Positions 11,918 to 34,878 of a stretch of 40,620 bases of DNA are shown here, in pieces. Below the pieces are notes generated by a model. That model saw only the letters and a program-made list of their open reading frames with translations. It made no database searches and was not told the origin of the DNA. Position 1 is the stretch's first letter, and the number at the start of each line of letters is the position of its first letter. The stretch is taken from the NCBI GenBank assembly GCA_964638215.1, contig CAZXBI010000002.1, positions 1 to 40,620 of the forward strand. The letters run 5' to 3'. This DNA is from an uncultured Syntrophorhabdus sp. Its GTDB lineage: Bacteria; Desulfobacterota; BSN033; UBA1163. The translations under genes and the position numbers were made by a program.

Positions 11918-11980
11918 GATTTATGAGATTATGTTTTCAAGGTGATAAATCCGCCGAATAAAGAGGATAGAGAAGTTTTT

Positions 11981-13369: not shown

Positions 13370-13487
13370 CGAACAAAGATGCTCGAAGAGCCAGCCCGCG
13401 GTCCTTCCGCCTTTAGAGTCGTTCGGTGTCATGGCGAGAAGCCGTTACGAGAACCTTTGATGACTGGAAGAGATACCAATTTTTTTC

Positions 13488-13516
13488 TTGACGGAATAGA
13501 TCATTCGATATATATA
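13488..13516 (+). promoter_or_regulatory. putative promoter of the TetR-headed operon with operator-like dyad
   Basis: TTGACG (13488-13493), 17-nt spacer, TATATA (13511-13516). The spacer holds CGGAATAGATCATTCG (13492-13507). Its reverse complement CGAATGATCTATTCCG resembles CCGAATGATTATTCGG at 1837-1852. Confidence 0.4.
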
Positions 13517-13550
13517 TATCAAATTGCTAACAAGTATTGGGTAATATAAA

Positions 13551-14186: not shown

Positions 14187-14256
14187 AAATAGAAATTATT
14201 TTTTTAATTTATTTACAAACGAACGCTCACTAAATATTTTCAAAAAGGAAAATCAT

Positions 14257-16085: not shown

Positions 16086-16105
16086 AGAATAAAAGGAGGT
16101 GGATT

Positions 16106-16504
16106 ATGGACAAACTATCTGTTGAAGCCATGAACCTTTTCAACAGTGCCGGAGCGTCTAAGGTCGTGGCGACGATCGACTCTTTGGGGTCGCTCAATGT
16201 CGTTCCCAAGGGCTCATTGAGTGCAATTGATGAGAAGACACTGATCTATGCTGAGATTTCAGGGGGAAAGACCGAGACCAACTTGAAGCCAGGGAATCGG
16301 GTGGCTGCTCTGGCATTTACAGCCTCTCCTCTTAACGGGTATCAGGCTAAGGGAAGATTCGAGGGATTTCAAACTAATGGTCCCCTCTTCGAAAAAGTGG
16401 GCAAAAAGGTGAAGGAGATGATCCATGTGGATATCCGAAGTGTGGGGGTGATCAAGATAGAAGAGATCTATTCAGTATCCCCAAACTTCCTCCCGAAGAG
16501 ATGA
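16106..16504 (+). CDS. PNPOx-like / FMN-binding split-barrel protein (tentative)
   Basis: 132 aa. AAGGAGG Shine-Dalgarno at 16093-16099. The pattern ...VVATIDSLGSLNVVPKGSLSAIDEKTLIYAEISGGKT.NL..N.RVA resembles pyridoxamine-5-phosphate-oxidase-related small proteins. No cofactor motif verifiable by eye. Confidence 0.45.
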   Translation: MDKLSVEAMNLFNSAGASKVVATIDSLGSLNVVPKGSLSAIDEKTLIYAEISGGKTETNLKPGNRVAALAFTASPLNGYQAKGRFEGFQTNGPLFEKVGKKVKEMIHVDIRSVGVIKIEEIYSVSPNFLPKR

Positions 16505-16577
16505 AATACTGGCACAATCGAAGGCCTTACAGCATGTTTACCTTACAAAAACGGGCAAAGCAAGGAGGAGGATAAAG

Positions 16578-18281
16578 ATGTTTGACAAAAAAACGTTAGA
16601 AGAAGCAAAAAAGCTTTCGCAGGAATGGCAGGGTATATGTGAAAAACGCTATCCTGGTAAGGATTTTAGCTCGACCACCAATTCAGGGATACCCATCAAA
16701 CCCGTCTATACTCCAGTAGATGTGGAGCATATTGATTATGGAAAAGACATTGGATTGCCGGGCATTTATCCTTACATGAGAGATAACTATGCCATTCATT
16801 ATCAATTCCAGCCCTGGATCAACCAACAGACCCATGGATATGGGTTACCAGAACACACCAGGGAGAGAATGGATTTACTCGCCAAAGCAGGAATGAAGGG
16901 GTATTTTGGCGGCCGGGCATACAATCTGGTATGGGATTTGCCCTCTTATTCGGGTATCGATCCAGATGAGCCCGAAGCGATAGGCTATATTGGCAAAGAT
17001 GGGGTGAGTTGTGTGACCGATGAGGATTTTGACCGGATGCTCCATGACTTAGACTTAACCAAAACAAATGTAGTGATGATTAATTCGGATACCCTTCCTA
17101 TTTTTGCCCATTTCATTGCTTATGCAGACCAAAAAGGAGTTCCCAGAAATAAGCTACGCGGCAACACGATGAACTGGCAGTTTACGGCCTGGTGGCTTCC
17201 AAGCATGTTATGGGAGCCTGAGGGTGGACTGAAACTGGCTACAGACCTAATTCATTTTTGCTGTCGAGAAATGCCCGATTGGAATCACACCAATTTCGAG
17301 TGCCATGCTATTTCAGAAATGGGTGCCAATGCGGTGCAACAGATGGCTTTTGGCATTGCGACCGCCATAGCTGTTGCCGATTCGTGTGTCAAGGCCGGAA
17401 TCGATCCAGATGCATTCATGCCAGGAATGGGATTCCAAATTGCAAATTGTAACGACTTTTTTGAATATGTCTGTATGTTTCGGGCTTGGAGAAGATTATG
17501 GGCGAGAATCGCTCATGAAAGATATGGGTGCAAAAAACCTTCCTCCATGCATCTCAGGGTTCATACCCATACTTCCTGTTATGAGCTAACGAAGCAACAA
17601 CCTCTGGTGAATCTCATTCGGACAACACTTCATGCCTTAGGGGCAGTCTTCTCTGGAACGACCGCCATGGAATTGCCGGGATATGATGAACCGATTGGTA
17701 TCCCCACTGAGAAAGCCGCGATTCTTTCGCTGAGAATTCAGCAGGTCATTTTGGAAGAAACAGGTATTACCAAAGTAACCGATCCACTATCTGGCTCTTA
17801 CTACATAGAATCGCTTACCAATAAGATTGAAGAAGAAGGTAAAAAGATCCTCAAACAGATTGAAGATATAGGTGGCTTCATGAAGGCCCTGAAGGGTGGA
17901 TGGCTTATTTCCCAGTGTCGTGAGAATGCGGTTAGATGGCGTCGCCAGGTGGATAGTGGAGAAAGAGTGGTGATCGGCTGGAACAAGTTTGCTGTGGAGG
18001 AAGAAGAGGAAGTCAAACCGTTTCGTGTCGATCCAGAGGTAGCGCGAGTTGCCATCGAACGAATCAAGAAATATAAAGCGAACCGTGATCAGGCGAAAAC
18101 AGAAAAGGCTTTGAGCAATCTGGTTTCTGCGGCAGAGAGGTTAGACAAAGGAGAATACGGGGTGGTCATGCCGGCAGCGATCGAAGCAGCTAAAGCCAGG
18201 GCGACTTGCGGAGAAATTTCAAAAGCGCTGGGAAAAGTCTTTAAATGGGGACCGAATTTTAGTCCGCTCATGTCATACTAA
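16578..18281 (+). CDS. methylmalonyl-CoA-mutase-family large (substrate-binding TIM barrel) subunit, divergent (mutase 1)
   Basis: 567 aa, colinear with MCM alpha chains: ...GIPIKPVYTP...GLPGIYPYMR..., FRAWRRLWARI, VHTHTSCYELT, LIRTTLHALGAVFSGT, DPLSGSYYIESLT. AAGGAGGAGG Shine-Dalgarno. Confidence 0.85.
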   Translation: MFDKKTLEEAKKLSQEWQGICEKRYPGKDFSSTTNSGIPIKPVYTPVDVEHIDYGKDIGLPGIYPYMRDNYAIHYQFQPWINQQTHGYGLPEHTRERMDLLAKAGMKGYFGGRAYNLVWDLPSYSGIDPDEPEAIGYIGKDGVSCVTDEDFDRMLHDLDLTKTNVVMINSDTLPIFAHFIAYADQKGVPRNKLRGNTMNWQFTAWWLPSMLWEPEGGLKLATDLIHFCCREMPDWNHTNFECHAISEMGANAVQQMAFGIATAIAVADSCVKAGIDPDAFMPGMGFQIANCNDFFEYVCMFRAWRRLWARIAHERYGCKKPSSMHLRVHTHTSCYELTKQQPLVNLIRTTLHALGAVFSGTTAMELPGYDEPIGIPTEKAAILSLRIQQVILEETGITKVTDPLSGSYYIESLTNKIEEEGKKILKQIEDIGGFMKALKGGWLISQCRENAVRWRRQVDSGERVVIGWNKFAVEEEEEVKPFRVDPEVARVAIERIKKYKANRDQAKTEKALSNLVSAAERLDKGEYGVVMPAAIEAAKARATCGEISKALGKVFKWGPNFSPLMSY

Positions 18282-18298
18282 AAAGGAAATAGGGGGTA

Positions 18299-18709
18299 AT
18301 GACTATGGCATCCAATAAAAAGGCAAGGGTATTAGTGGCAAAGCATATTCTAGAAGGTCATGATCGAGGAGGAAAAACGGTTATTAGGATGTTGAGGGAT
18401 GCAGGGGTTGAGGTCATCTATATCATTTATCGGATTCCAGAAGATGTCGTCATGGCAGCGAAGCAAGAAGATGTTGATGTCATCGGTTTAAGCTTTTTCA
18501 GTGGAGGATATCTTGAAAATGTCCCGAGGTTAATGAAATTAATGGAAGAAAATAGGATGAAAGATGTCCTCGTCATCCTCGGAGGGTTAATCCCAGATGT
18601 GGATAAACCAGAGTTAGTCAAAATGGGTGTCAAAGGAGTATTCGGACCTGGGGACGATCTGACAGGATTTATCAACATGGTTAAAAGCCATGCCGAAGCA
18701 AGGGTCTAG
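18299..18709 (+). CDS. B12-binding small subunit of mutase 1
   Basis: 136 aa. RVLVAKHILEGHDRGGK is the B12 His-loop but reads ExHxxG. Also VDVIGLSFFSGGY and ILGGLIP motifs. Starts 18 nt after the large subunit. Confidence 0.85.
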   Translation: MTMASNKKARVLVAKHILEGHDRGGKTVIRMLRDAGVEVIYIIYRIPEDVVMAAKQEDVDVIGLSFFSGGYLENVPRLMKLMEENRMKDVLVILGGLIPDVDKPELVKMGVKGVFGPGDDLTGFINMVKSHAEARV

Positions 18710-18923
18710 ATTCTTTTTCCGACTCGAATATGGAGGAGGTAGAAAAGAGCATCCATCTGGCTGAAGTAAAACTTATTTCTAAGTTCCCGCTCTCGAAAAG
18801 AGATAGAGACGATATTTTCAACCCACAATTGGTGTTAGTCAATCTCATCCATCTCCTGAGTGCTTTCAAAGGCGAACCTTGTAAATGAGAGAATGTTCAT
18901 CCCTAAAGATAGGGGGCTGATCA

Positions 18924-19718
18924 GTGGAGAATAGCTGGAAATTGGGTAGATATTTCACTTTAGAGAAGAGAGATGCTTGTGGGATCGTCTATATGGATCG
19001 ACCCCCTGTCAATTCCTTAGATGTCGAGTTTTTACAAGACTTAGCGAAGATGTCTGACTCGATTTCTGGAGCATCAGAGATAAGAGCTATCGTCCTCACA
19101 AGCCGACTTAAAGTTTTTTGCGCGGGTCTCGATCTGAAGATGGCCTCTCAGATGGATCTTAAAGCGTGGACCCGATATGAAATGGAGTTGGATCATGGTT
19201 TTGGCAAACTGTTGAATCTTCCAAAACCTGTCATTGCAGCCATCAATGGACCTGCCCTTGGAGGAGGGATGGTGATTGCCTTGGCCTCTGACTTTCGTTT
19301 CATTGCTGAGGAGAAAGGAAGAATGGGTCTCCCCGAAGTCAACCTTGGGATTCCTCTTTTAGGGGGATCCACCCAACTTCTGGCTCGAATGTTCAACCGG
19401 GGAGTGGCCATAGAGATTGCTTTTTCTGGAAATACATATAACAGTCATAAGGCTTTGCGTATTGGACTCGTCCACCGGGTCTTCAAGGATGAAGAGCTTC
19501 TGGAGAGATCGGTCGCCTATGCTCAAAAGCTGGCTAAAAAGGGTCCAGTGGCCTTGGCTATGATCAAATGCTGCATCAATGGGAGTTTGAGAAGGGAGAT
19601 TCAGGGAGTACTTCCTTTAGAATTAGAGGCGGTGGAGAAAACGGCCGAAACCGAGGACATGAGAGAGGGGTTTTCCTCTTTCTTTGAGAAACGGAAGCCT
19701 ATTTACAAGGGAAGGTAA
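18924..19718 (+). CDS. crotonase-fold protein, copy 2
   Basis: 264 aa, GTG start. Motifs VFCAGLDL, INGPALGGGMVIALASD, GLPEVNLGI. V replaces the first catalytic Glu. Confidence 0.85.
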   Translation: MENSWKLGRYFTLEKRDACGIVYMDRPPVNSLDVEFLQDLAKMSDSISGASEIRAIVLTSRLKVFCAGLDLKMASQMDLKAWTRYEMELDHGFGKLLNLPKPVIAAINGPALGGGMVIALASDFRFIAEEKGRMGLPEVNLGIPLLGGSTQLLARMFNRGVAIEIAFSGNTYNSHKALRIGLVHRVFKDEELLERSVAYAQKLAKKGPVALAMIKCCINGSLRREIQGVLPLELEAVEKTAETEDMREGFSSFFEKRKPIYKGR

Positions 19719-19731
19719 TGAAAGGAGATAG

Positions 19732-20937
19732 ATGATGAATGACCGTGAAGTTGTCTTTGTATCAGCCGCTCGCACCCCGATCGGAGACTTTGGGGGATCA
19801 TTGAAGGATTTCAGGGCCACTCAACTGGCTGCCATTGCCATTGAGGAGGTCATCCGGAGGATCAATCTTCCTAAGGATCAGATCGAGGATTCGATCTTCG
19901 GTTGCTGCATCCAGAATACTGACGAGATCACTGTGGGTCGGATCGCTGCCCAGTTAGCTGGGCTTCCAGATACCATTCCTGGGGTAACCATTCATCGTCA
20001 GTGCACTTCTTCTATGCAGGCTTTGGTCTATGGTGCTCAGCAGATCCTTTTGGGAGAGGCAGAGATCCTTCTGATCGGAGGAACGGAAAGCATGAGCAAT
20101 ACTCCTTTTACGCTCAAGACTGTTCGATGGGGTGCAAGACTTCGCCATGGAGAGATGACCGATGCCTTATGGGATGCCCTGCATGCCGGAAGTGGAATCT
20201 TAGGGAAGCCCATGATCATGGGTTCTACTGGAGAAAATTTAGCGGAGAAATATAACTTGACTCGAGAACAACAGGATGAAGTTGCGCTGACCAGCCAGCA
20301 CCGTGCTGTGAAGGCGATCAAGGAGGGGAGGTTTAAAGAGGAGATTGTCCCTGTCACCATTCCGCAGAAAAAGGGCCCTCCAAAGATTTTTGATACCGAT
20401 GAACACCCCAGGGAGGGTCTTACCATGGAGGATCTGGCCAGGCTTGAACCTGTCTTCAAAAAGGATGGGACAGTGACAGTAGGAAATGCCTCAGGGATCA
20501 ATGATGGTGCCTGTGCTGCCATCCTCATGTCGAGAAAGAAGGCCGAGAAACTGGGTCTTGAACCATTGGCCAAGCTTCGGATGCCGGGTTATGCTGTTGT
20601 CGGGGTTGATCCCCGATATATGGGATATGCGCCTATTCCAGCAACCGAGATCGCACTGCAAAAAGCAGGTTTGACCCTTAAAGACATTGAGTTGATCGAA
20701 TGTAATGAGGCCTTTGCTGCTCAATACCTCACCTGCGAAAAGCTCTTGGGGTGGGATCGGGAGATCGCCAATGTGAATGGAAGTGGGATCGCCCTTGGTC
20801 ATCCCGTGGGTATGAGTGGGCTCAGGATCGTGATTACCCTCATTTATGAGATGAGAAGAAGGGGTTTGAAAAAGGGCCTGGCTACACTCTGTGGCGGTGG
20901 TGGACAAGGAATGGCAGTGATTCTTGAAAGGGACTAA
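19732..20937 (+). CDS. acetyl-CoA C-acyltransferase (thiolase)
   Basis: 401 aa. Motifs VFVSAARTPIG, nucleophile Cys in HRQCTSSMQAL, NEAFAAQ, GHPVGMSG, CGGGGQG. Confidence 0.9.
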   Translation: MMNDREVVFVSAARTPIGDFGGSLKDFRATQLAAIAIEEVIRRINLPKDQIEDSIFGCCIQNTDEITVGRIAAQLAGLPDTIPGVTIHRQCTSSMQALVYGAQQILLGEAEILLIGGTESMSNTPFTLKTVRWGARLRHGEMTDALWDALHAGSGILGKPMIMGSTGENLAEKYNLTREQQDEVALTSQHRAVKAIKEGRFKEEIVPVTIPQKKGPPKIFDTDEHPREGLTMEDLARLEPVFKKDGTVTVGNASGINDGACAAILMSRKKAEKLGLEPLAKLRMPGYAVVGVDPRYMGYAPIPATEIALQKAGLTLKDIELIECNEAFAAQYLTCEKLLGWDREIANVNGSGIALGHPVGMSGLRIVITLIYEMRRRGLKKGLATLCGGGGQGMAVILERD

Positions 20938-21052: not shown

Positions 21053-22180
21053 ATGAAAAGAGTGGAACGATTGAAGGAGGCATTAAGGCAGCCTGAACAG
21101 TGGGCCAATCGATGGAAGGCCCAAGGCGGGAAGGTAATAGGATATCTCTGCACGAATATCCCAGAGGAAATTCTCTTTGCAGCCTCCGCTCTTCCCATAC
21201 GGATCATGGGAAATCCCGGAGAGACAACATCTCTCGCCAATGCCTATCTTCAGAGCAATATCTGTCCTTTTGTTCGAAGTTGCCTGGACCAGGGGCTCAA
21301 AAGAAGATATTCGTATCTCGATGGCATCATATTTCCTCATACCTGTGATGGCATTTGTAAACTCCACGATGCATGGAAGAGATATATTTCCATTCCCTTT
21401 GTCTATATGATGGATTATCCCCACCGTATCTCTTCCATGTCTTACGACTACTTCTCAAAAGAGATCTTGAAGTTGAGGAGGGCTCTTGAAGAATTGACTG
21501 GTCATGAGATAACTGACGATTCCCTTGCCCAGGCCATTGAGATTTATAATGAGAATCGGAGACTCCTTAAATCTCTCTATTCTCTCAGGAAGAGATCAGG
21601 TCCTGATATTTCTGGTTCTGAAATCCTTCAAATCATGAAATTGGGCATGATCATGCCAAAAACAGAACATAATATTTTATTGAAAGAATGGATTGATGAG
21701 ATCAAGAAGAGAGAAAAGGGTGCGGATGAGAAACCAAGAATTGTCATCTCGGGAAGCATCCTGGATAATCCTGATCTCATTCAGGAGATCGAGAAAGGGG
21801 GATGCAGAATAGTAGCAGACGACCTCTGCATAGGAACCCGTTACTTCTGGGATGAGGTAGCACTTGGGGGGAGTCCATGGGAGGCACTGAGTCGACGATA
21901 CCTTGATAAGATTCCTTGTTCATGTATCAACTCTGCGCGTAGCCGATTGGACCATATATTATCAATGGTCAAGGAATTTGAAGCGGATGGGGTCATTTTC
22001 TATAAACTCAAATTCTGCGACAATTATCATTATGATGCGCCACCCTTCCGAGAAAGGTTGAAGTCCTTAGGAGTCCCAGTATTGGAATTGGAATCAGAGT
22101 ATGCCTCCACAGGATACGGTCAATTGAAGACGCGGATTCAGGCCTTTTTGGAGATGATCTCTATCAAAGTAAGAGTATAG
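21053..22180 (+). CDS. HgdB/HadC/BcrC-like subunit of 2-hydroxyacyl-CoA dehydratase / benzoyl-CoA reductase family
   Basis: About 375 aa. N-terminus ...GGKVIGYLCTNIPEEILFAA.ALPIR and C-terminal DGVIFYKLKFCDNYHYD are typical of the HGD-D family. The ORF is open from TTG 21047; ATG 21053 follows GGAG (21041-21044). Confidence 0.8.
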   Translation: MKRVERLKEALRQPEQWANRWKAQGGKVIGYLCTNIPEEILFAASALPIRIMGNPGETTSLANAYLQSNICPFVRSCLDQGLKRRYSYLDGIIFPHTCDGICKLHDAWKRYISIPFVYMMDYPHRISSMSYDYFSKEILKLRRALEELTGHEITDDSLAQAIEIYNENRRLLKSLYSLRKRSGPDISGSEILQIMKLGMIMPKTEHNILLKEWIDEIKKREKGADEKPRIVISGSILDNPDLIQEIEKGGCRIVADDLCIGTRYFWDEVALGGSPWEALSRRYLDKIPCSCINSARSRLDHILSMVKEFEADGVIFYKLKFCDNYHYDAPPFRERLKSLGVPVLELESEYASTGYGQLKTRIQAFLEMISIKVRV

Positions 22181-22182
22181 TC

Positions 22183-22707
22183 ATGGAACGTGGTCTTATC
22201 CAGGTCTATACTGGGAATGGTAAGGGTAAAACGACTGCTGCCTTGGGGTTAGCCTTGAGGGCGGTCGGCCATGGGTTAAAGGTCTTGATCGTTCAGTTTA
22301 TGAAAGGGAGTGTAAACTATGGCGAAAAGGAATCTGCAAGAAAACTTTCTCCCTATTTGACGATAAAAAAGATGGGGAGGGAGACCTTTGTTTCTAAATC
22401 TCATCCCGATCCAGTGGATTTTAGGAATGCTCAAGAGGGGTTCTCCTTAGCAAGAGAAGCGATCAAGAATGAAGAATTTGACATCGTGGTTCTTGACGAG
22501 ATCAATTTGGCTATTGATTATGGCTTAATCCCTCTGTCTGATCTTCTCCAGCTCATCGATTCAAAACCGAAGACAGTAGAACTCATCCTCACCGGTAGAA
22601 ATGCGAAACCAGAAATCTTGGAAAAGGCCGATTTGGTAACAGAAATGGTGGAAAGGAAACACTACTATCATAAAGGGGTTCCAGCACGGCAAGGTATAGA
22701 AATATAA
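22183..22707 (+). CDS. cobO: ATP:cob(I)alamin adenosyltransferase, CobO/CobA/BtuR type
   Basis: 174 aa. GLIQVYTGNGKGKTTAALGLALRAVGHG..V.IVQFMKG and VVLDEIN motifs. Starts 2 nt after the preceding stop. Confidence 0.85.
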   Translation: MERGLIQVYTGNGKGKTTAALGLALRAVGHGLKVLIVQFMKGSVNYGEKESARKLSPYLTIKKMGRETFVSKSHPDPVDFRNAQEGFSLAREAIKNEEFDIVVLDEINLAIDYGLIPLSDLLQLIDSKPKTVELILTGRNAKPEILEKADLVTEMVERKHYYHKGVPARQGIEI

Positions 22708-22846
22708 TTCCAAAAGTTCGGGGTAGGAGATCCGAACGTATTCTATGGAAGGGAAATGCGCTTTTTCTCAATTGGGCTGCCGTCCAAAGTGCAACGGAGT
22801 GGGGAGAGGAGAACGCAAAGCCCAAGGGATAGGAGAGATAGTTCAC

Positions 22847-23620
22847 ATGATCACTGTAGGGATCGATATTGGGGCTTTAACGGCAAAGGCCGTTGTGACG
22901 AAGGATGGAACGATCCTCTCTTGGGCAATCCTGACGACAGGAGAAGAAGGGGCTGTGGCCGCTCAGAAGGTCTTGCAAGAAGCCCTTGAAAAGGCGCAGC
23001 TTTCAATCAAAGAGATTCATCGGATTGCCTCGACAGGCTATGGAAAAGAAACGGTCCACTTTTCCAAACAGCAGGTTCCAGATATGATCTGTCAGGCTAA
23101 AGGGAGTCGATGGTTCTTACCAACAGGAAAGACCTTTATCGACATTGGCGCTGAGACAAGTCGGGCCATCCGATTGGATGGACGGGGAAAGGTGGTTGAC
23201 TTTGCGGTCAATGATAAATGTGCATCAGGAACAGGGATCTTCTTAGAGACTATGGCAAAGGTCTTGGAGGTTCCTCTGGCTGATATGGGGAAATTGGCAT
23301 CCCTATCGAAAGAGCCGGTGGCCATCAGCAGTATGTGTGCGGTTTTCGCCGAATCAGAGATCGTTTCTCATATTCACCAGAAAGTTCCAAAATCTGACAT
23401 TGCCGCGGGAATCCATCAATCTGTGGCTCAGAGGATTATGGGACTTTTAGATAAGATTGGAGTTGAAGTGGATGTGGGGTTGACAGGAGGAGTCGCCAAA
23501 AACTCAGGTGTGGTAAAGGCCCTTGAAGAGCGAATCGGGCTTTCTATTTTTCTCCCGGAGGAACCTCAGATCATAGGGGCTGTCGGTTGTGCTCTGGTGG
23601 CGGCAGGAGTGAATAGATGA
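22847..23620 (+). CDS. activase-type ATPase 1 (BcrAD_BadFG / HgdC family)
   Basis: ITVGIDIGALTAKAVV phosphate-1 motif. The two cluster-ligand Cys sit in NDKCASGTG and SSMCAVFAESE. Also TGGVAKN. The ORF is open from 22745, but AGGAGAG (22831-22837) precedes ATG 22847. Confidence 0.85.
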   Translation: MITVGIDIGALTAKAVVTKDGTILSWAILTTGEEGAVAAQKVLQEALEKAQLSIKEIHRIASTGYGKETVHFSKQQVPDMICQAKGSRWFLPTGKTFIDIGAETSRAIRLDGRGKVVDFAVNDKCASGTGIFLETMAKVLEVPLADMGKLASLSKEPVAISSMCAVFAESEIVSHIHQKVPKSDIAAGIHQSVAQRIMGLLDKIGVEVDVGLTGGVAKNSGVVKALEERIGLSIFLPEEPQIIGAVGCALVAAGVNR

Positions 23621-24819
23621 ACTTCCAAACATCAAAAAAGACGGTCAACCTTTCGAAAGAGATCTGGCCGATGGTGAAACAGTACTATGCCTGGTGCAAG
23701 GAAGCAAAACAGGCTGGTAAGAAAGTGGTCTGGACTGTCGGTCTTGGACCGAATGAACTTCTCCACGCCTTCGGTCTTGCCCCAATTTTTTTGGAACAGT
23801 ACTCCATCGTCATGGCAGGGAGACATCAGGTGACGAGGTACCTGGAAATGGCGGAGAATCTGGGTTTTTCAAGAGACAGTTGCTCTTATCATCGGGCCTT
23901 GATCGGTTACGGTTTGGAACCCGATGGTTTGATGATTCCGAAGCCAGACCTGGTCTTAGCCACGGCGACCCCATGCGACAGTTCAAGTAAGAGTTTCATC
24001 GCCTTGGTGAATCGTCTCGGTATCCCTTACTACTATCTGGATATCCCATTCAACTGCACGGAGGGCGCTGGAGAGGCCCATCAGTTCGACTATGTCGAGG
24101 AGCAGTTAAAAGAACTTGTCTCCTTTTTGGAGAAGGAGACTGGAGTATCACTAACCAGTGAGAGGCTTGGAAAAGTGGTGGGATTGGCCAATCGGGCTAA
24201 TGATCTTTGGGCCAAGATCAATGATTTGCGGAAGGCCGTTCCCTGCCCCATGACTGTGGCAGATGAGATGGGCCTCGCCTATCCACTCTTTCAGTTGCCT
24301 GGGACCGAACAGACGGTGCAATTTTACGAGAAGGTGCTTGCTGAGGTGGGAGAGCGAGTTCGGAAAGAGGAAGGAGCCATCCCAAATGAGCGATATCGAA
24401 TTCTATGGCTCGGACCTGCAGCATGGTATCACTTACGGCTTCTCAATTATGTTGAGGATTACGGCGGGGTTCTCGTGAAATCTGACTTTGACTACCTGAC
24501 CCATGGATGGATTGATCCTGGGAATCCCTTGAGAGGAATAGGAGAGAAGATGATCTCCGGATTCCTCAATGGTGTTGTGGAGAACCGCATCCAGCTGGCA
24601 CGACGATTCGTCCAAGACTACCGGATCAATGGCGTCATCGCCTTTTCTCACTTTGGATGTCGCCAATATGGAGGCGGGCAGAGAGCGGTCAAGGATGCCC
24701 TTTTTGAGGAGTTCGGAATTCCGACCCTTATCCTTGAGGGGGATAACATCGATGAGAGAAACTATGCCGATGACCAAGTGAGGAGTCGGATTGAGGACTT
24801 TATTTCTTTAATGATGTAG
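23617..24819 (+). CDS. HgdA/HadB/BcrB-like subunit of 2-hydroxyacyl-CoA dehydratase / benzoyl-CoA reductase family
   Basis: 400 aa. ATGA overlap with the upstream ATPase gene. Motifs KKVVWTVGLGPNELLHAFGL.P, ATPCDSSSK, INGVIAFSHFGCRQYGG. Confidence 0.8.
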   Translation: MNFQTSKKTVNLSKEIWPMVKQYYAWCKEAKQAGKKVVWTVGLGPNELLHAFGLAPIFLEQYSIVMAGRHQVTRYLEMAENLGFSRDSCSYHRALIGYGLEPDGLMIPKPDLVLATATPCDSSSKSFIALVNRLGIPYYYLDIPFNCTEGAGEAHQFDYVEEQLKELVSFLEKETGVSLTSERLGKVVGLANRANDLWAKINDLRKAVPCPMTVADEMGLAYPLFQLPGTEQTVQFYEKVLAEVGERVRKEEGAIPNERYRILWLGPAAWYHLRLLNYVEDYGGVLVKSDFDYLTHGWIDPGNPLRGIGEKMISGFLNGVVENRIQLARRFVQDYRINGVIAFSHFGCRQYGGGQRAVKDALFEEFGIPTLILEGDNIDERNYADDQVRSRIEDFISLMM

Positions 24820-24831
24820 GAGGGGAGAGAG

Positions 24832-25632
24832 ATGTTTTTTGCTGGGGTAGATGTTGGTTCCTTGAGTGCTGACACAGTGATCATGGACGATGGAAAGGTA
24901 GTTGCTTATAGCGTTCTTCCCACTGGAGGGGATAGTACGAACGCAGCTTATAAAGCCATGGAGGTTGCACTGAATCAAGGGGCTCTTAAACTCGGGGACA
25001 TGGCCTACACGGTTGCAACGGGCTATGGCAGAGTGAATGTTCCCTTTGCCAGAGAAAACGTCACAGAGATCTCGTGCCATGCACGAGGTGCTCATTGGCT
25101 CTTTCCTTCAACGAGGACCATCCTGGATATGGGAGGCCAGGACTGCAAGGCCATTCGATGTGATGAACAAGGAAATGTCGTAGACTTCGCCATGAATGAG
25201 AAGTGTGCTGCCGGAACAGGAAGGTATCTGGAGATCATTGCTGAAGTCTTGGAGATGAGACTCGAAGAGATTGGGCCGAGATCTTTGGAGGCAAAGCAGG
25301 AAGTAGGGATCAGCTCAGCATGTGCTGTTTTTGCTCGCTCAGAGGTGCTCTCATTGGTTCGGAAGGGAGTTCCTAAAAATGATGTCCTTGGAGGGATCCA
25401 CGAGGCCATTGTTTGTCGAGTCCTAGCCCTGATCATGCGAGTGGGAATTGAAAAGGATTTTATCATCACCGGAGGGATTGCTAAGAATATTGGGGTGGTG
25501 CGCCGATTGGAAAAAAGGATGGAATTGGACGCTAAGATACCAACAGAGCCCCAAATTGTGGGGGCCCTCGGAGCAGCCCTCTTCGCAGAGGAGAGGTTTC
25601 GTTCTGGATTTCAAAAAACGGGAGGTGTGTGA
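24832..25632 (+). CDS. activase-type ATPase 2 (BcrAD_BadFG / HgdC family)
   Basis: 266 aa. FAGVDVGSLSADTVI, NEKCAAGTG, SSACAVFARSE, TGGIAKN. A clearly different paralogue of ATPase 1. GGAGGGGAGAG Shine-Dalgarno. Confidence 0.85.
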   Translation: MFFAGVDVGSLSADTVIMDDGKVVAYSVLPTGGDSTNAAYKAMEVALNQGALKLGDMAYTVATGYGRVNVPFARENVTEISCHARGAHWLFPSTRTILDMGGQDCKAIRCDEQGNVVDFAMNEKCAAGTGRYLEIIAEVLEMRLEEIGPRSLEAKQEVGISSACAVFARSEVLSLVRKGVPKNDVLGGIHEAIVCRVLALIMRVGIEKDFIITGGIAKNIGVVRRLEKRMELDAKIPTEPQIVGALGAALFAEERFRSGFQKTGGV

Positions 25633-26786
25633 TGGATTTTGAGCTTTCGGAGGAACAGAAGGGAATCAAGCGGGCAGCTTTCGAGTTTGCAAAAGGGGAG
25701 TTCGACAAGGATCTCGCTATGGAGTTGACAAAGAATCATGCCTTTCCTGCGGAGATTCATAAGAAGACCTGTAAACTTGGATTTATCGGGATGCATTATC
25801 CGGAGGCCTATGGTGGGCAGGGTTATGGAATCCTTGAGAATGGTTTGGTCATGGAGGAATTCTGTCGTCAAGACTCCAGTATCGGGATTGCTCTCAGCGT
25901 TTGCAATTTTTCTTCGGAGATCATCTTGCGTTTCGGCAATGAAGAACAGAAAAAGAAATATTTGATTCCTTTAACCAAGGGTGAAATGATCTCCTCGGGT
26001 GCTTTTACAGAGCCAGATCACGGGAGCGATATTACCCAGATGTTCACCACTGCCATGTTGGAGGATGGAGGGTTCGTCGTTAATGGCACAAAGACGTTCA
26101 TCACCAATGGGACGATTGCAAAATTCGCCATCGTCCTTTGTCAAACCGATTCTAATGCCAAGCCCACTTATCGAGGACAATCCACCATCCTCGTAGAGAC
26201 AGGTCGAGAGGGATTTGAGATTTCAGATGTGGGTGAAAAGATGGGAATCAAGATGAGCCCCACGACGGAGATGTCATTCAACAATGTAAGGGTCCCCAAA
26301 GAAAATCTCATAGGAGAGCTCAATAAAGGGTTTTACAATGTTCTCGGGTTCTTTGATGAAAGCCGTGTTTTGGTAGGGTCCCAAGGTCTTGGGATCGCTC
26401 AGGGGGCCTTTGATCGGGCCTTGGATTATACCAAAAAGAGGACTCAGTTTGGGCAAAAATTGGTGGATTTTCAGGTGACCCAACATAAACTGGCAGATAT
26501 GGCGACAAAGATAGAGGTTGCCCGATTGCTGGTTTACAAGGCCGGATGGAACTTCGACCAGGGGAGGATTGATCCCAAACTCACATCGATGGCCAAGATG
26601 TTTGCAGCTCGGGTGGCGGTGGAGGTTGCAGACGAAGCGATTCAAATGTTAGGAGGATATGGTTATATTACGGAATATGAGGTGGAGCGGTTCTACCGAG
26701 ATGCAAAAATCACTGAGATTTATGAAGGGACGCGGGAGATCCAGAAGAATACGATTGCGAGTTACCTGATTGGCAAGAACAAATGA
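25632..26786 (+). CDS. acyl-CoA dehydrogenase (butyryl/medium-chain type)
   Basis: About 384 aa. The ATG overlaps the stop of the ATPase 2 gene (TGATG 25630-25634). Motifs AFTEPDHGSD, GTKTFITNG, and catalytic-base context IYEGTREIQ. Confidence 0.9.
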   Translation: MDFELSEEQKGIKRAAFEFAKGEFDKDLAMELTKNHAFPAEIHKKTCKLGFIGMHYPEAYGGQGYGILENGLVMEEFCRQDSSIGIALSVCNFSSEIILRFGNEEQKKKYLIPLTKGEMISSGAFTEPDHGSDITQMFTTAMLEDGGFVVNGTKTFITNGTIAKFAIVLCQTDSNAKPTYRGQSTILVETGREGFEISDVGEKMGIKMSPTTEMSFNNVRVPKENLIGELNKGFYNVLGFFDESRVLVGSQGLGIAQGAFDRALDYTKKRTQFGQKLVDFQVTQHKLADMATKIEVARLLVYKAGWNFDQGRIDPKLTSMAKMFAARVAVEVADEAIQMLGGYGYITEYEVERFYRDAKITEIYEGTREIQKNTIASYLIGKNK

Positions 26787-26975: not shown

Positions 26976-28658
26976 ATGTTTAAAGAAGAAGAAATTAAAA
27001 GAATTGAAAAAGAAAGAATGGAGTGGACGGAGAAGACAAAGGATTTCATGGAACAGAAGAAGGAATTTGTAACCCCTTCGGGGATAAAGATTAAGAACAT
27101 TTATACTCCTGAAGACATTAAAGGTTTAGATTATGTGAAAGATATTGGTTTTCCGGGTGTCTATCCTAATGTCAGGGGTGTCTACCCCACGATGTACAGG
27201 GGGCAACCCTGGACCATCCGAATGTTTTCAGGTTTTGGGACCCCTGAAGAAACCAATAAAAGGTGGAGGTTACTTTATGAAGAAGGGGAAACCGGTTTTT
27301 CAGCGGCCTGTGACGTCCTTACCTTTAATGGGATTGATCCTGATGACCCTGAGGTTGATGCCCAGGGAGAAGTGGGGACTTCAGGGACTCCCCTTTATTC
27401 TATTAAGGCTGTCGAGGAAATGATTAAAGACTTACCCATTGATAAAGTCACAGTAGCTCTGGTGGTAGAGTGTATGACCGCCACAAGCCTCACGTCCATG
27501 TACTTCAATGCTGCTAAAAAAAGAGGGTATTCTCTGAACCAGATAGGGGGGACCACTCAAAATGATATTGGCACGATGTTGATTGGTTATATTACGCGCA
27601 ATTCCTTAAAACCCGATGTACTTTTAAAACTAGCATGCGATTTAATAGAATATTGCATTCCGATGAAGAATGCCCCGCGCTGGAATCCGATTAATTTTAC
27701 GACCTATAATTATCGCGAAGGCGGGATCGATGCAGTTCAAGAGATCGCCTTTGGCTTTACCAACGCCATAGACCATATTGATGAGTTGTTAAGACGAGGC
27801 TGGGAGATCGACGAATTTGCCCACAGGCTGGCATTCCATCTTTCTGCAGACCGCCATTTCTTTGAAGAGATTGCCAAATACCGTGCTGCTCGGAGAATCT
27901 GGGCCAAATTGATGACCGAAAGATATGGCGCCAAGAACCCCCAATCGATTGCTATGAAATATCATGTTCAAACGGCCGGGAGTTCCCTGGCCAATAAACA
28001 ACCAATGGTGAATATTATCAGGACTACTATTCAGGGTTTGGAAGCTGTTCTGGGGGGAACACAATCCATGCATACTAACTCCTGGGATGAGGCCATCTGT
28101 CTTCCTTCGGATGAGGCAGTAAAATTAGCCGTAAAAACCCAACAGGTCATCCGGGAGGAGACAGGGGTTACGGATACCATTGATCCCTTGGCCGGTTCCT
28201 ATTATGTAGAATGGCTTACCAATGAAATGGAGAAGCGTATCTTGAGTTACATGGGAGAGATTGAAGCACAAGGAGGTTTTGTCAAAGCCCTTGAAAATGG
28301 TTGGATTTTTAACGAAATGACCAAGGCTTTTCATAAGCGACAAAGAGCCATTGCCAGTGGAGAGGAAAAATTTCTTGGAATAAACTGTTTTACCAGTCAG
28401 GAGGAATCCACCATCATTCCTTTCCGGACTAATCCTAAAGCGGCAGAGATTGAAATCGAAAGGCTAAAGAAACTGAGAAAAGAACGTAATAACAACCGTG
28501 TTACTGCCTTGCTGGACGAATTACGCCGTGTTTGTGAAAGGAAAGAAAATGTCATGCCTAAAGTAATGGAACTCACCGCGGAAGGGGCTACCTTGGGTGA
28601 AATCACTAAAGTTTATCGCCAAATTTTTGGAGTTTGGGAATTGCCCATTGCTGTTTAG
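26976..28658 (+). CDS. methylmalonyl-CoA-mutase-family large subunit (mutase 2)
   Basis: 560 aa. Motifs GFPGVYPNVRGVYPTMYRGQPWTIRMFSGFGTPEETN, GGTTQNDI, KYRAARRIWAKL, HVQTAGSSL, DPLAGSYYVEWLT. Confidence 0.9.
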   Translation: MFKEEEIKRIEKERMEWTEKTKDFMEQKKEFVTPSGIKIKNIYTPEDIKGLDYVKDIGFPGVYPNVRGVYPTMYRGQPWTIRMFSGFGTPEETNKRWRLLYEEGETGFSAACDVLTFNGIDPDDPEVDAQGEVGTSGTPLYSIKAVEEMIKDLPIDKVTVALVVECMTATSLTSMYFNAAKKRGYSLNQIGGTTQNDIGTMLIGYITRNSLKPDVLLKLACDLIEYCIPMKNAPRWNPINFTTYNYREGGIDAVQEIAFGFTNAIDHIDELLRRGWEIDEFAHRLAFHLSADRHFFEEIAKYRAARRIWAKLMTERYGAKNPQSIAMKYHVQTAGSSLANKQPMVNIIRTTIQGLEAVLGGTQSMHTNSWDEAICLPSDEAVKLAVKTQQVIREETGVTDTIDPLAGSYYVEWLTNEMEKRILSYMGEIEAQGGFVKALENGWIFNEMTKAFHKRQRAIASGEEKFLGINCFTSQEESTIIPFRTNPKAAEIEIERLKKLRKERNNNRVTALLDELRRVCERKENVMPKVMELTAEGATLGEITKVYRQIFGVWELPIAV

Positions 28659-28737: not shown

Positions 28738-29160
28738 ATGGGCACTGGTAAAAAGATCAGGGTCTTAATGGTAAAAGTAGGGTTTGATGGCCACTGGCGA
28801 GGAGCCGTCAGCGTTTCTTCATTATTAAAAGATGCTGGCATGGAGGTCATTTTTGGAGGCTTCCAGGAAATTGACACGATTATTAATACGGCAATTCAGG
28901 AAGATGTGGATGTTATTGGTCTGAGTATTCATTCCGGTGCCCATATCTACTGGACAAGAAAAATAGTTGAACGGCTTGCAGAAAGAAGTCTGGCCAATGA
29001 ATTCATTTTAATGGTCGGAGGTGCTATTCCCGAATATGACTTTGAGGAGCTGCGAAATTTAGGTGTTTATGGGATATTTTCACCAGGCACTCTTCCAGAG
29101 AGGATCGTCAGCGAGTTCAGGGAAAGTGTATCGGGAAAAAAGATGGCCCGTTTACATTAG
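28738..29160 (+). CDS. B12-binding small subunit of mutase 2
   Basis: 140 aa. Canonical DxHxxG (FDGHWRG), VDVIGLSIHSGAH, VGGAIP. Confidence 0.85.
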   Translation: MGTGKKIRVLMVKVGFDGHWRGAVSVSSLLKDAGMEVIFGGFQEIDTIINTAIQEDVDVIGLSIHSGAHIYWTRKIVERLAERSLANEFILMVGGAIPEYDFEELRNLGVYGIFSPGTLPERIVSEFRESVSGKKMARLH

Positions 29161-29509: not shown

Positions 29510-29571
29510 AGAGCAGAGTGCATAGCGTAAATGATTTTGGGTTTACTTTTATGCGCTATGCTCTCTGCTCT
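29510..29571. terminator. long hairpin between convergent gene sets (possible bidirectional terminator)
   Basis: AGAGCAGAGTGCATAGCG (29510-29527) is the reverse complement of CGCTATGCTCTCTGCTCT (29554-29571) with one mismatch; the loop is 26 nt. The right arm overlaps the last codons of the minus-strand synthetase gene. There is no clean U-tract, so function is uncertain. Confidence 0.35.
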
Positions 29572-31637
29572 TTGCTTAAAACGATGCGGGCATCCACTGC
29601 TATTGCCCCTTTCTCCATCGCCATCACCGGATTGATGTCAATTCCTTCGATTTCAGGAAAGTCCACCATCAACTGAGAGAGCCTGAGAAGCATCTCGACG
29701 ATCGCCTCGATGTCCAGAGGTCGTTCTCCCCGAACCCCATGGAGAATAGCAGACGATTTTAACTCCGAAATCATCTCCGCTGCTTCGGAGCGATTGATGG
29801 GAGCCACCCGAAGGGAGGTCTCCTTCAGAACCTCCACATAGATTCCACCCAGACCAAAAAGGATGACCGGTCCAAAGGAGGGATCCCGTTTCGCCCCCAG
29901 GATGACTTCTTTCCCCGCAGAGATCATCTTTTGAAGGAGCACACCGGTCCTATTCCCCGGATTCAGGCTCATCACCCTGTCATAGGCCTCTTCCGCCTTT
30001 TTCAGAGAATCGATATGGAGAATCACTCCGCCCACGTCTGATTTGTGTGAGATTTCCGGAGAGATGACCTTCATGGCTGCGGGAAATCCGATCTTTTCAA
30101 TGGCCTGCCCCAAATCTTCCTTTCGATAAACCAACTCGTAGTCGGCAACGGGAATGCCGCATGCCCGGAGCAATTCCATTGCTTCTGGAAGGAGGAGATC
30201 CCTTTTCTCTCCTATTGCTTTTTGAAGAACCAGGGCAGCACGGCTCTTATCAATGGGATAGAAAGGAGATTCTTCCTTCGATGTTGTCAATCTACGGTAG
30301 TGGTCCCTTGAGATGGCTAACGCCGCTAAGGCATCTTCAGGCTCTGTGAAGATAGGATAATCGAGGGCCCTCTTGATATAAGCCAGCTCTTCCTCATCGG
30401 TATTGTATTGAAGGGCAACCGGTTTCTGATAACGGAAGGAGAGCTCCTTGACAGCCTGGACAAATTTTCTGGAAGGCTCTTTCTCCTCAGCCGTTGCCCC
30501 GTGCTGGAAAAGGATCCCATTGACCATCGGGAATCTAAGAGCCTGTTCGAGGATGCTCGTGTAGAGGTCGAAGTTGAAGAGGTCTCCGAGATCGAGAGGA
30601 TTGGTAGGCTGAATCACTTTTGCCCGAAAGAGACTATGGAACTGCTCCTGGAGTTTTGGGTCAGGGGGAAGAAGTCGAAATCCGTGCCGTTCTGCCGAGT
30701 CGGCGGCCACCACACCGATCCCTCCGGAGCGTGAGATGATCACGAGGTTTTTCCCTTTGCAGGGTGGCAGAGAAAGGATCTTCACGGCATTCACAAAGGA
30801 TCGGAAGTCTTTGGTGCGAATGATGTCGGCCTGTTTCAAGGCGGCCTCCACGACCCTGTCGTCGTTGGCCAGGGCGGCGGTGTGAAGCTTTGCAATCTGA
30901 CGGCTTCCCTCTCCGGTGTTGGCCTTGTGAATGATAATGGGTTTGGATGTGGAGTGGGCAATCTCCATCAATTCCCTTCCCCGCCCAAGGCTCTCAAGGT
31001 AGAGCCCGATAATGTCGGTCTTAGGATCATCGATGAGATACTTCAGGTAGTCGATCTCGTTGAGGTCTAATTTATTTCCCATGCTCACCATTTTTGACAG
31101 GCCCACATTGGCGCTAATCATGAGGTTCGCATAGGTGAGAAGAACGCCTCCGCTTTGAGCCAGGATGGAAAGTTTCCCCTTGCTCACCGGCCCTCTCTTC
31201 AGCTTGACAAAGGGGACGACAAAGCCATTATCGACATTGGTGATTCCGATCCCGTTCGGTCCCACGATTCGGATTCCCCATTTTCGGGCAGTCTGAAGAA
31301 CGGTTTGTTCAAGCTGGCCTCCTTCTTCCGAATATTCTCTGAACCCTCCGGTTTCGATAATGACCCAGGGGATCTTCTTTCGTCCGCAGGCTTCGATGAA
31401 GTCAGGCACGGTTTGAGCAGGGGTGAGGATGACGGCCACATCGATGCCATCGGGAAGCTGATCCACAGAGGTTAGGATTCTACGTCCAAAGAGGACGCTA
31501 TCTTTTCTTCCCACAAGGAAGATTTCACCGTTGAATTGAAATTCGAAGAGGTTTTCTACGATATTTCTTGCAAGGTTATCCGGTCTTTCTGAGACACCGA
31601 TTACGACCACCGATTTCGGATAGAAAAGCTGATGCAT
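29556..31637 (-). CDS. NDP-forming acyl-CoA (acetyl-CoA) synthetase, fused alpha-beta
   Basis: 693 aa. CoA-binding N-terminus LFYPKSVVVIGVSERPDNLARNIVENL. Ligase-CoA middle domain, C-terminal ATP-grasp part. GGAGG Shine-Dalgarno (reverse complement of 31644-31648). Confidence 0.85.
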   Translation of the reverse strand: MHQLFYPKSVVVIGVSERPDNLARNIVENLFEFQFNGEIFLVGRKDSVLFGRRILTSVDQLPDGIDVAVILTPAQTVPDFIEACGRKKIPWVIIETGGFREYSEEGGQLEQTVLQTARKWGIRIVGPNGIGITNVDNGFVVPFVKLKRGPVSKGKLSILAQSGGVLLTYANLMISANVGLSKMVSMGNKLDLNEIDYLKYLIDDPKTDIIGLYLESLGRGRELMEIAHSTSKPIIIHKANTGEGSRQIAKLHTAALANDDRVVEAALKQADIIRTKDFRSFVNAVKILSLPPCKGKNLVIISRSGGIGVVAADSAERHGFRLLPPDPKLQEQFHSLFRAKVIQPTNPLDLGDLFNFDLYTSILEQALRFPMVNGILFQHGATAEEKEPSRKFVQAVKELSFRYQKPVALQYNTDEEELAYIKRALDYPIFTEPEDALAALAISRDHYRRLTTSKEESPFYPIDKSRAALVLQKAIGEKRDLLLPEAMELLRACGIPVADYELVYRKEDLGQAIEKIGFPAAMKVISPEISHKSDVGGVILHIDSLKKAEEAYDRVMSLNPGNRTGVLLQKMISAGKEVILGAKRDPSFGPVILFGLGGIYVEVLKETSLRVAPINRSEAAEMISELKSSAILHGVRGERPLDIEAIVEMLLRLSQLMVDFPEIEGIDINPVMAMEKGAIAVDARIVLSKEQRA

Positions 31638-34826: not shown

Positions 34827-34848
34827 GCTTGGTCGTTAAATTTTAACT

Positions 34849-34869: not shown

Positions 34870-34878
34870 AATAACATA

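Follow-up and report, generated by a model that had tools for sequence, protein, structure and literature searches.

A BCR/HAD-family iron-sulfur enzyme with two ATPase paralogues in an uncultured Syntrophorhabdus sp.: a candidate ATP-driven reductase for a non-benzoyl acyl-CoA

Among the reactions of biology, those of class I benzoyl-CoA reductases (BCRs) and 2-hydroxyacyl-CoA dehydratases (HADs) run at some of the lowest potentials, and to our knowledge only a handful of substrates of these enzymes are known. Here, we describe a locus of this family in an uncultured Syntrophorhabdus sp., at positions 21053-25632 on the + strand of a 40,620-nt stretch of contig CAZXBI010000002.1 (the window, by which we mean this stretch at its full length). 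Open reading frames (ORFs) of the window were compared with Pfam profiles, with NCBIfam profiles and their equivalog cut-offs, and with solved PDB structures. The locus encodes two subunits of the HGD-D fold, a catalytic site with three cysteines, and two ASKHA ATPases with two cluster cysteines each, and its product is, judging from these features, an iron-sulfur enzyme of the BCR/HAD family with two ATPase paralogues. No orthologue among characterised enzymes was found: identity to solved relatives ranges from 24 to 45% across the four subunits, and none of them reaches an NCBIfam equivalog cut-off. A first-pass annotation of this DNA had raised the possibility that the genes fall in a known, characterised clade with the same gene order, and no characterised member was found. 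We lean, with slightly more confidence than doubt, towards a four-subunit, BZD-type, ATP-driven reductase acting on an acyl-CoA other than benzoyl-CoA.

The closest described systems supply the residues against which the locus can be read. In the BCR BzdNO, subunit BzdN binds an [8Fe-9S] double cubane through Cys36, Cys73, Cys100, Cys263, Cys293 and Cys327, a cluster proposed to store two or more electrons, and half of which is lost in HadC (PMC11971306). The catalytic subunits BzdO and HadB each hold a three-cysteine [4Fe-4S]-OH2 cluster; in BzdO, Trp46 forms part of the wall of the benzoyl pocket, His131 is in contact with the cluster water, and Gln274 and Tyr298 form hydrogen bonds to the thioester oxygen (PMC11971306). 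In the catalytic double-cubane cluster proteins (DCCPs), a seventh conserved cysteine that is not a ligand, Cys94, accompanies the six (PMC7317905).

The first gene of the locus (21053..22180, +; TTG ORF start at 21047) encodes a gamma-like, BzdN-like subunit (Pfam HGD-D PF06050, 1.9e-107) of 377 amino acids (aa) counted from the TTG or 375 aa from the ATG, its orthologues being 374-376 aa long. The best NCBIfam match is double_cubane NF040772 (265.8 bits; cut-off 350), followed by BcrC (219.8; cut-off 421), HadC (217.9; cut-off 700) and BzdN (217.7; cut-off 453.8), and the best solved relative is BzdN (8s02_B; 220 bits, 34% identity), with HadC at 197 bits. C35, C73, C100, C261, C291 and C324 align, in this order and with a nearly BzdN-like spacing, with the six BzdN ligands. 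Indeed, BzdN and DCCP share cysteines at exactly six alignment columns, and the gamma-like subunit has cysteine at all six; HadC and MbdN, the latter from 3-methylbenzoyl-CoA reductase, have it at three of the six, with Pro and Ala at two of the columns in HadC. All six are kept in 12 of the 15 family members examined. The gamma-like subunit is, from this motif, a predicted carrier of an [8Fe-9S] double cubane, and a cluster that stores two or more electrons fits a reductase. At the column of DCCP Cys94 it has Ile, and BzdN also has no seventh cysteine; a DCCP-like CxC in the gamma-like subunit was tried as this seventh cysteine and rejected on account of that Ile. The subunit sizes, which had been taken to point to HadC/HadB and FldC/FldB, proved to be no guide, since BzdN measures 379 aa and size cannot separate Had from Bzd proteins.

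The second HGD-D subunit, beta-like and catalytic (23617..24819, +; 400 aa; PF06050, 1.7e-72), is 21% identical to the gamma-like one and only 24-28% identical to BzdO (26%), HadB, MbdO and DCCP. Its best solved matches are BzdO (partial) and then HadB, and in NCBIfam it scores best with HadB (145.2 bits; cut-off 750), ahead of BcrB (118.6; cut-off 486.6) and BzdO (115.1; cut-off 448.6). C89, C120 and C348, which align with BzdO Cys95, Cys128 and Cys380 and are invariant in 17 homologues, are predicted to form a [4Fe-4S] site, and E60 and Y91 are the equivalents of BzdO Glu65 and the thioester-binding Tyr97. An AlphaFold2 model (pLDDT 89.8) superposes on HadB, BzdO and MbdO with TM-scores of 0.88-0.91; structure prediction and Foldseek gave no separation of HadB-like from BzdO-like for this subunit, and given the near-equal superposition on HadB and BzdO, the catalytic subunit alone indicates neither a reductase nor a dehydratase. 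The earlier description of the enzyme as a "hybrid" has some merit in this respect, the catalytic subunit being as HadB-like as it is BzdO-like. The BzdO His131 position was also considered as a discriminator between reductases and dehydratases, and dropped, as MbdO has Phe there.

The two ATPases are encoded at 22847..23620 (delta-like, 257 aa; BcrAD_BadFG, 2.4e-48) and 24832..25632 (alpha-like or BzdQ/MbdQ-like, 266 aa; BcrAD_BadFG, 4.7e-63), both on the + strand. They are 42% identical over 252 residues without gaps and are, at this distance, not recent duplicates; near-identical copies being ruled out, the two distinct paralogues of the first-pass annotation are upheld. So are the cluster cysteines it had reported in both, which lie in the motifs NDKCASGTG and SSMCAVFAESE (delta-like) and NEKCAAGTG and SSACAVFARSE (alpha-like) and align with HgdC, HadI, MbdQ and MbdP. 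The alpha-like ATPase scores 264.6 bits with the BzdQ profile TIGR03192 (cut-off 380.2), and its best solved relative is MbdQ (9gai_D; 243 bits, 45% identity). The delta-like ATPase matches the generic activase domain at 244 bits and BzdQ at 172.3 bits (cut-off 380.2), and its best solved match is HadI (215 bits, 40% identity).

The nucleotide motifs set the two apart. The delta-like ATPase is degenerate, having GAETSR for GGQDxK and GTGIF for GTGRF, and the alpha-like ATPase has canonical GGQDCK and GTGRY and an Asp in place of the phosphate-1 Lys (GSLSAD). Neither of the two has the full canonical motif set, and this reciprocal loss in the window pair (24832-24870 and 22847-22885) is found likewise in the related loci L002, L004, L029 and L031. 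Among relatives, the delta lineage shows GAE(T/S)S(R/K), GTG(I/V/L)F and often CASGTG, with the phosphate-1 Lys kept, and the alpha lineage keeps GGQDCK and GTGR(F/Y); the phosphate-1 Lys of the latter is replaced by Asp or Glu (GSLSAD/E) in the window, L002, L004, L029 and L031. CASGTG and the loss of the Arg after GTG are features that the delta lineage has in common with the delta subunit MbdP, and the alpha subunit MbdQ of a known BCR keeps all three nucleotide motifs. In 200 neighbour-joining bootstraps, computed with a small number of solved structures as the only references, none of them a catalytic sequence of the Bcr, Bad, Thn, Hgd, Fld or Lcd type, the alpha lineage was monophyletic in 200 and the delta lineage in 182; the two were sisters in 129, and delta joined MbdP in five.

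Both lineages occur, in one copy each, in L002, L004, L014, L019, L020, L024 and L026, which are Desulfobacterota-like or belong to the Chloroflexota/Dehalococcoidia. L017 carries both as well, its delta-type ORF, which is truncated at the contig start, having been excluded from the alignment and tree. Furthermore, of the 120 database sequences most similar to the delta-like ATPase, approximately 55 carry the GAE(S/T) variant, indicating that the delta lineage is widespread. By these alignments, the two ATPases are two old lineages, one canonical and one degenerate, and no simple duplication. The lack of a full canonical motif set in either one favours an obligate heterodimer of alpha and delta, comparable to that of class I BCRs. 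ATPase pairs were also observed at loci where no HGD-D gene lies within 10 kb: L029/L030 (10001-15337) and L031 (10001-12058) hold genes for a TetR regulator and for delta-like and alpha-like ATPases, followed in L029/L030 by cobU-cobT-cobS and an acyl-CoA dehydrogenase (ACAD) gene, with two 2-oxoacid:ferredoxin oxidoreductase sets adjoining, and in L031 by a small ferredoxin.

The five co-directional genes of the window run C, cobO, A1, B, A2 (C, gamma-like; B, catalytic; A1, delta-like ATPase; A2, alpha-like ATPase), where the first-pass annotation had placed them, on the + strand. Among relatives the order varies. L004 (72-84% identical to the window) has C, A1, B, A2 and no cobO; L026 (82-89%) has C, cobO, the large and small subunits of a mutase, A1, B, A2; L027 and L028 (75%) have C, cobO; and in L023 (74%) a flavoenzyme of the old yellow enzyme (OYE)/FadH type stands immediately before C. 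More distant loci show PadR, C, A1, B, OYE, FAD protein, A2 (L002 and L024, the latter with two extra B paralogues), A2, B, C, A1 (L019 and L020) or B, C, A1, A2 (L014), and the order A1-A2...B-C is also found among relatives. Known BCR operons also differ among themselves in gene order. The interleaving is therefore not diagnostic: it was described correctly, and it is typical of the subclade of the window, not a signature of the family.

The inserted gene (22183..22707, +) encodes a CobO/CobA-type ATP:cob(I)alamin adenosyltransferase (CobA_CobO_BtuR, 6e-66; TIGR00708, 179.6 bits, above its cut-off of 167.75). It follows the gamma-like gene in L026, L027 and L028 and is absent from the 72%-identical L004. 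As it is missing there and, in L026, shares its place with a mutase pair, CobO is not a subunit of the enzyme and belongs with MeaB and the two adenosylcobalamin (AdoCbl) mutases of the operon. That AdoCbl genes repeatedly stand among the subunit genes (window, L026, L027 and L028) shows coupling at the level of the pathway. OYE/FadH-type flavoenzymes lie beside the subunit genes in L001, L002, L023 and L024, and known aryl-CoA reduction pathways likewise include OYE-type neighbours. L024 (10001-19544) combines one gamma-like gene and one ATPase pair with three tandem catalytic paralogues (37-39% identical to that of the window), an OYE/FadH-type flavoenzyme and a FAD_binding_3 protein, an arrangement that suggests interchangeable catalytic subunits on a common electron-activating module. 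In a further subfamily, 47% identical (L008-L013 and L025, from Desulfobacterales, Spirochaetota, Nitrospinae and other metagenome-assembled genomes (MAGs)), the order is a C-like gene, a PHP-domain protein, an ADP-forming acyl-CoA synthetase alpha-like protein and a B-like gene, then CoaE, an HdrD-like Fer4+CCG pair and a mutase pair, with no ATPase nearby; loci of the L008-L013 type gave no functional hint.

The junctions between the genes indicate one operon, with four-base overlaps at 23617-23620 and 25629-25632 and a two-base gap at 22181-22182, which separates the stop at 22180 from the start at 22183. The ORF of the delta-like ATPase opens at 22745; its start is most likely the ATG at 22847, which has GGAGAG upstream and gives the 257 aa of the orthologues. 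The only sizeable intergenic gap within the five-gene block, the 139 bases between cobO and the delta-like ATPase gene, contains a hairpin with a 7-bp stem (GTTCGGG...CCGAAC, 22716-22737), which is not convincing as a terminator because its T-tract is weak. A promoter and terminator scan gave counts not above those of shuffled sequence and was not used. An ACAD gene (25629..26786, +; Pfam ACAD N/M/C; best NCBIfam match AcrC, 384 bits, below the cut-off of 640) follows directly, as had been noted, its start overlapping the stop of the alpha-like ATPase gene.

Upstream of the gamma-like gene, further genes of the operon run on the + strand from 9524 to 20937. The operon head consists of a TetR regulator (13551-14186), the G-protein chaperone MeaB (14149-15300), a crotonase (15258-16085) and a PNPOx-like protein of 132 aa (16106-16504; a weak match, E 1e-5, below the Pfam cut-off), a set found in identical order in L004 and L023. 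The PNPOx-like protein always stands just before mutase 1, and its copies in L004 and L023 are 80-91% identical. As listed, the MeaB ORF (383 aa) starts inside the TetR gene and shares its last bases, at 14149-14186; the MeaB orthologue in L023 has 349 aa, so that the true start in the window probably lies further downstream. A second crotonase-family enzyme (18924-19718) and a thiolase (19732-20937), both from NCBIfam matches, are conserved in L004 and L027, the thiolase gene being directly upstream of the gamma-like gene. Upstream of the operon head lie a 3-hydroxyacyl-CoA dehydrogenase (9524-10489) and two PaaK-family acid-CoA ligases (10622-11917 and 11942-13369), all below their NCBIfam equivalog cut-offs, and an ABC uptake system with an AMP-binding enzyme precedes the dehydrogenase; a solute-binding protein is encoded at 6722-7960. 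An orthologue of the ligase PaaK475 lies upstream in L004, and the PaaK-family ligases likely activate the substrate. Converging on the end of the operon, at 29556-31637 (-), is a gene for an ADP-forming acyl-CoA synthetase of 693 aa with domains of the CoA-binding, Succ_CoA_lig and ATP-grasp types, which could conserve energy from acyl-CoA products. Further downstream (33960-35303), genes for a restriction-endonuclease-like REase-ARP/PD-(D/E)XK protein of 288 aa and a PIN-domain protein of 129 aa are unrelated to the locus described here.

Two AdoCbl acyl-CoA mutases, both on the + strand, flank the enzyme genes, each with a large and a B12-binding subunit, and their motifs were compared for the window and two PDB references only. 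Mutase 1 (16578-18281 and 18299-18709; TIGR00641, 442.8 bits), conserved at 86-93% in L004 and L023, has PWINQQTHGYG where methylmalonyl-CoA mutase (MCM) has PWTIRQYAGFS (Tyr89 replaced by Thr), and NWQFTAWWLPSMLW where MCM has NDILKEFMVRNTYI (Arg207 replaced by Pro), substitutions set in an aromatic-rich stretch. MCM Tyr243 is replaced by Cys, and the signatures of MCM, isobutyryl-CoA mutase (ICM) and 2-hydroxyisobutyryl-CoA mutase (HCM) are all absent. Mutase 2 (26976-28658 and 28738-29160; MM_CoA_mutase, 1e-166; B12-binding, 1.1e-23) scores higher with the HCM subunit HcmA (451 bits) than with MCM (331 bits) among solved relatives, and has Ile90 replaced by Phe, Asp117 by Ala, the HCM/ICM Gln by Arg, and MCM His244 by Asn. 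Both mutases are non-canonical in their specificity residues. The best PDB match of mutase 1 is HcmA, and a role as a 2-hydroxyacyl-CoA mutase feeding a dehydratase was considered for it and rejected, as Ile90 and Asp117 are replaced by Thr and Val.

The DNA itself shows which subunits are encoded and with which cluster-ligand residues, that the ATPases fall into two lineages and that the genes are linked in an operon; we infer the formation of the heterodimer, the direction and stoichiometry of electron flow, reductase over dehydratase chemistry and the class of substrate, in a scheme that would run as follows. The alpha-like and the degenerate delta-like ASKHA ATPases would form a heterodimer with one bridging [4Fe-4S] cluster, and ATP hydrolysis would drive low-potential electrons from it into the [8Fe-9S] double cubane of the gamma-like subunit and on to the catalytic subunit (400 aa), which would hold a [4Fe-4S] cluster and bind the acyl-CoA; these predicted cofactors are those of the BZD type. 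Most likely, an unsaturated or aromatic acyl-CoA other than benzoyl-CoA, made by the upstream AMP-forming ligases of the PaaK type, would be reduced by two electrons in an ATP-coupled reaction. The two AdoCbl mutases, served by MeaB and CobO, would rearrange the carbon skeleton, which the crotonases, dehydrogenases and thiolase of the operon would then shorten.

In favour of the reductase are the predicted double cubane, the conservation of the alpha/delta pair, OYE genes that recur in the neighbourhood among relatives, and substrate activation by ligases. Between the two options left by the first-pass annotation, a dehydratase and a non-benzoyl reductase, the latter is the better supported, by way of the six-cysteine motif absent from HadC. 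The locus has the six-cysteine gamma motif and the two different ATPase lineages of the BZD type, and differs from that type in its Bzd/Bcr equivalog scores, in the BzdO pocket and catalytic residues (of which only the Glu and Tyr97 are kept) and in its lower-pathway context. From HADs, with their single homodimeric activator and three-cysteine beta site, it differs in both of these features and in its HadB/HadC equivalog scores. Several observations weigh against a BZD-type reductase. In the 400-aa subunit, BzdO Trp46 is replaced by Gly, His131 by Ser, Gln274 by Pro and Tyr298 by Phe; this subunit scores higher with HadB (145 bits) than with BcrB (119) or BzdO (115), and its top Foldseek match is HadB (TM-score 0.91) rather than BzdO (0.90). 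The ACAD gene lies directly downstream, as in had operons, and among the window ORFs scanned the operon has no ferredoxin gene or ferredoxin-regenerating system and no set of dienoyl-CoA hydratase (Dch), Had and Oah. The lack of the latter set agrees with the first-pass annotation: it is absent from the best 25 NCBIfam matches of both crotonases.

Several of these features would also suit a ketyl-radical dehydratase, for 2-hydroxyacyl-CoA or of another kind, that is activated by a heterodimer. In such an enzyme the one ATP-injected electron would be recycled, the enoyl-CoA would pass to the ACAD or the crotonases, and the mutases would supply or remove branched skeletons. Its best NCBIfam and Foldseek matches to HadB, at an equally compact length, the translational coupling to the ACAD gene as in had/fld operons, and the lack of a dedicated ferredoxin gene all speak for this reading, which we regard as a serious though distinctly less probable alternative. 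The partner subunit has the six-cysteine motif that is lost in published HAD structures, and two ATPase lineages are conserved across phyla where characterised HADs have one homodimeric activator. Moreover, the scan of the window ORFs showed neither a family III CoA-transferase nor a 2-hydroxyacid dehydrogenase, activation being by AMP-forming ligases; neither mutase has Asp117 or Ile90, the marks of a 2-hydroxyacyl-CoA mutase; and the equivalog scores lie far under the cut-offs (HadB, 145 against 750; HadC, 218 against 700). A diverged but ordinary BCR, or a tetrahydronaphthoyl-CoA (THNCoA) reductase, merits very little credence. Relatives are labelled "benzoyl-CoA reductase subunit C" or "bzd-type N subunit" in their sources, and the gamma- and alpha-like subunits are closest to BzdN and MbdQ, but all Bzd/Bcr equivalog scores are reported as about half of the cut-off or less, the catalytic subunit is 26% identical to BzdO with four pocket or catalytic residues changed, and the Dch/Had/Oah set is missing. 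As regards THNCoA reductase, the thn operon combines a contiguous thnBCDE with MaoC, AtuA-like and further genes that the locus lacks (PMC12016498), and that enzyme is reported to be 70-78% identical to class I BCRs (PMC6849830).

The remaining alternatives concern the ATPases. They could be separate homodimeric activators, redundant or meant for different partners, as both keep the two bridging-cluster cysteines and either could in principle homodimerise; the three catalytic paralogues in the one L024 cluster and the ATPase pairs of L029 and L031, apart from any HGD-D gene, could be read in the same way. We consider this improbable, since the two lineages are always paired, stand-alone loci included, and each ATPase is without a different canonical motif, in parallel with MbdQ and MbdP of a solved heterotetramer. 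More improbable still is that the ATP-driven module serves cobalamin itself, reducing cob(II)alamin to cob(I)alamin for CobO or reactivating the mutases, a role for which we know of no precedent. Such a role would suit the placing of cobO, which in the window, L026, L027 and L028 separates the gamma gene from the delta gene (in L026 together with a mutase pair), and the delta/alpha pair followed by cobU-cobT-cobS in L029 and L030; many members, however, have no B12 genes nearby (L002, L014, L019, L020 and L024), the catalytic subunit has an acyl-CoA enzyme fold and a Cys/Glu/Tyr site, and a pathway that needs AdoCbl and carries its own genes for cofactor supply is the simpler explanation.

Homologues of the preferred reductase are numerous: 443 representatives of 50%-identity clusters match the catalytic subunit at E <= 1e-30, the best of them only 45% identical, and hundreds of relatives of the gamma-like subunit (40-52% identity) bear generic names in Dehalococcoidia, Tectomicrobia, Thermodesulfobacteriota, Bathyarchaeota and other MAGs. 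The genome matches are MAGs from aquifers, groundwater and tar biofilm; when GTDB genomes were scanned with the 400-aa subunit as the sole query, no relative came up. For deriving patterns, an alignment of 17 sequences proved too diverse, and one of 10 sequences served. The literature yielded the BzdNO and DCCP papers and reviews on polycyclic aromatic hydrocarbons, and beyond these neither a characterised enzyme of this type nor the MbdONQP structure paper. Features so far seen in separate enzymes come together in the clade, namely the predicted double cubane of the BzdN type, a catalytic subunit that has the size of HadB and a pocket of its own, and a reciprocally degenerate ATPase pair. If its substrate were identified, anaerobic carbon degradation would gain a reaction, and the double cubane would be put to the test as a general electron store for ATP-coupled two-electron reductions. 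A wider proposal, tentative and rather less probable than not, is that the clade represents a widespread class of ATP-driven double-cubane enzymes, with a delta/alpha heterodimeric "archerase", a six-cysteine gamma subunit and a HadB-sized catalytic subunit, performing low-potential radical chemistry on non-aromatic, branched or alicyclic acyl-CoAs together with AdoCbl mutases of new specificity. If true, this would be an undescribed anaerobic route for recalcitrant carboxylic acids; in a bolder form of the proposal, the module may be coupled directly to corrinoid reduction.

Among known systems, BzdNOPQ of Aromatoleum sp. CIB (PDB 8S02; Fuchs et al. 2025, PMC11971306), a class I BCR of the BZD type also encoded by four genes, shares with the locus a six-cysteine gamma subunit, a catalytic site of three Cys, Glu and Tyr, and two different ASKHA ATPases. 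Unlike BzdO, the catalytic subunit of the window is approximately 45 residues shorter, at 26% identity, and the order, N-(cobO)-P-like-O-Q-like, differs from NOPQ. The scanned ORFs of the window hold no ferredoxin gene or benzoyl-CoA lower pathway, in contrast to the Bzd system, and AdoCbl mutase genes stand in linkage with the locus. A grouping of the delta-like ATPase with MbdP, the sole solved reference of the P/delta type available, appears in only 5 of 200 bootstraps. The 3-methylbenzoyl-CoA reductase MbdONQP of Thauera chlorobenzoica (PDB 9G87 and 9GAI) pairs a canonical MbdQ with a degenerate MbdP (GGQT, CASGTGMF), which mirrors the asymmetry seen here; however, MbdN is without three of the six double-cubane cysteines, the catalytic subunits are 24% identical, and the alpha type of the window, unlike MbdQ, is without the phosphate-1 Lys.

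With HadBC and HadI, the (R)-2-hydroxyisocaproyl-CoA dehydratase of Clostridioides difficile (PDB 3O3M and 4EHT), the locus has in common the length and fold (TM-score 0.91) of the catalytic subunit, its three-cysteine site and its Glu, an ACAD downstream, and a 257-aa ATPase that matches HadI best (215 bits). It differs in the six cluster cysteines of the gamma-like subunit against three in HadC, and HadI acts alone, as a homodimeric activator; genes for a CoA-transferase and a 2-hydroxyacid dehydrogenase belong to the had operon and mutase genes do not, the opposite of what the scanned ORFs of the window show. DCCP and DCCP-R of Carboxydothermus hydrogenoformans (PDB 6ENO and 7YYL) share the six double-cubane cysteines, and double_cubane is the best NCBIfam match of the gamma-like subunit, although the latter falls short of DCCP-type membership (NF040772, 265.8 against 350). 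DCCP forms homodimers, carries Cys94 and is served by a reductase that is itself homodimeric, whereas the gamma-like subunit would pair with a three-cysteine catalytic subunit and two ATPases. Finally, THNCoA reductase (ThnBCDE) is, like the enzyme proposed here, an ATP-dependent class I-type system for a non-benzoyl CoA ester, found in strict anaerobes with a beta-oxidation-like operon, and its pathway includes OYE-type reductases, as the relatives of the window have OYE neighbours. It is set apart by description, thnBCDE being contiguous and the content of the thn operon different (Table 1, PMC12016498), and by a reported identity to class I BCRs of 70-78% (PMC6849830) against the 26-34% of the window to Bzd proteins.

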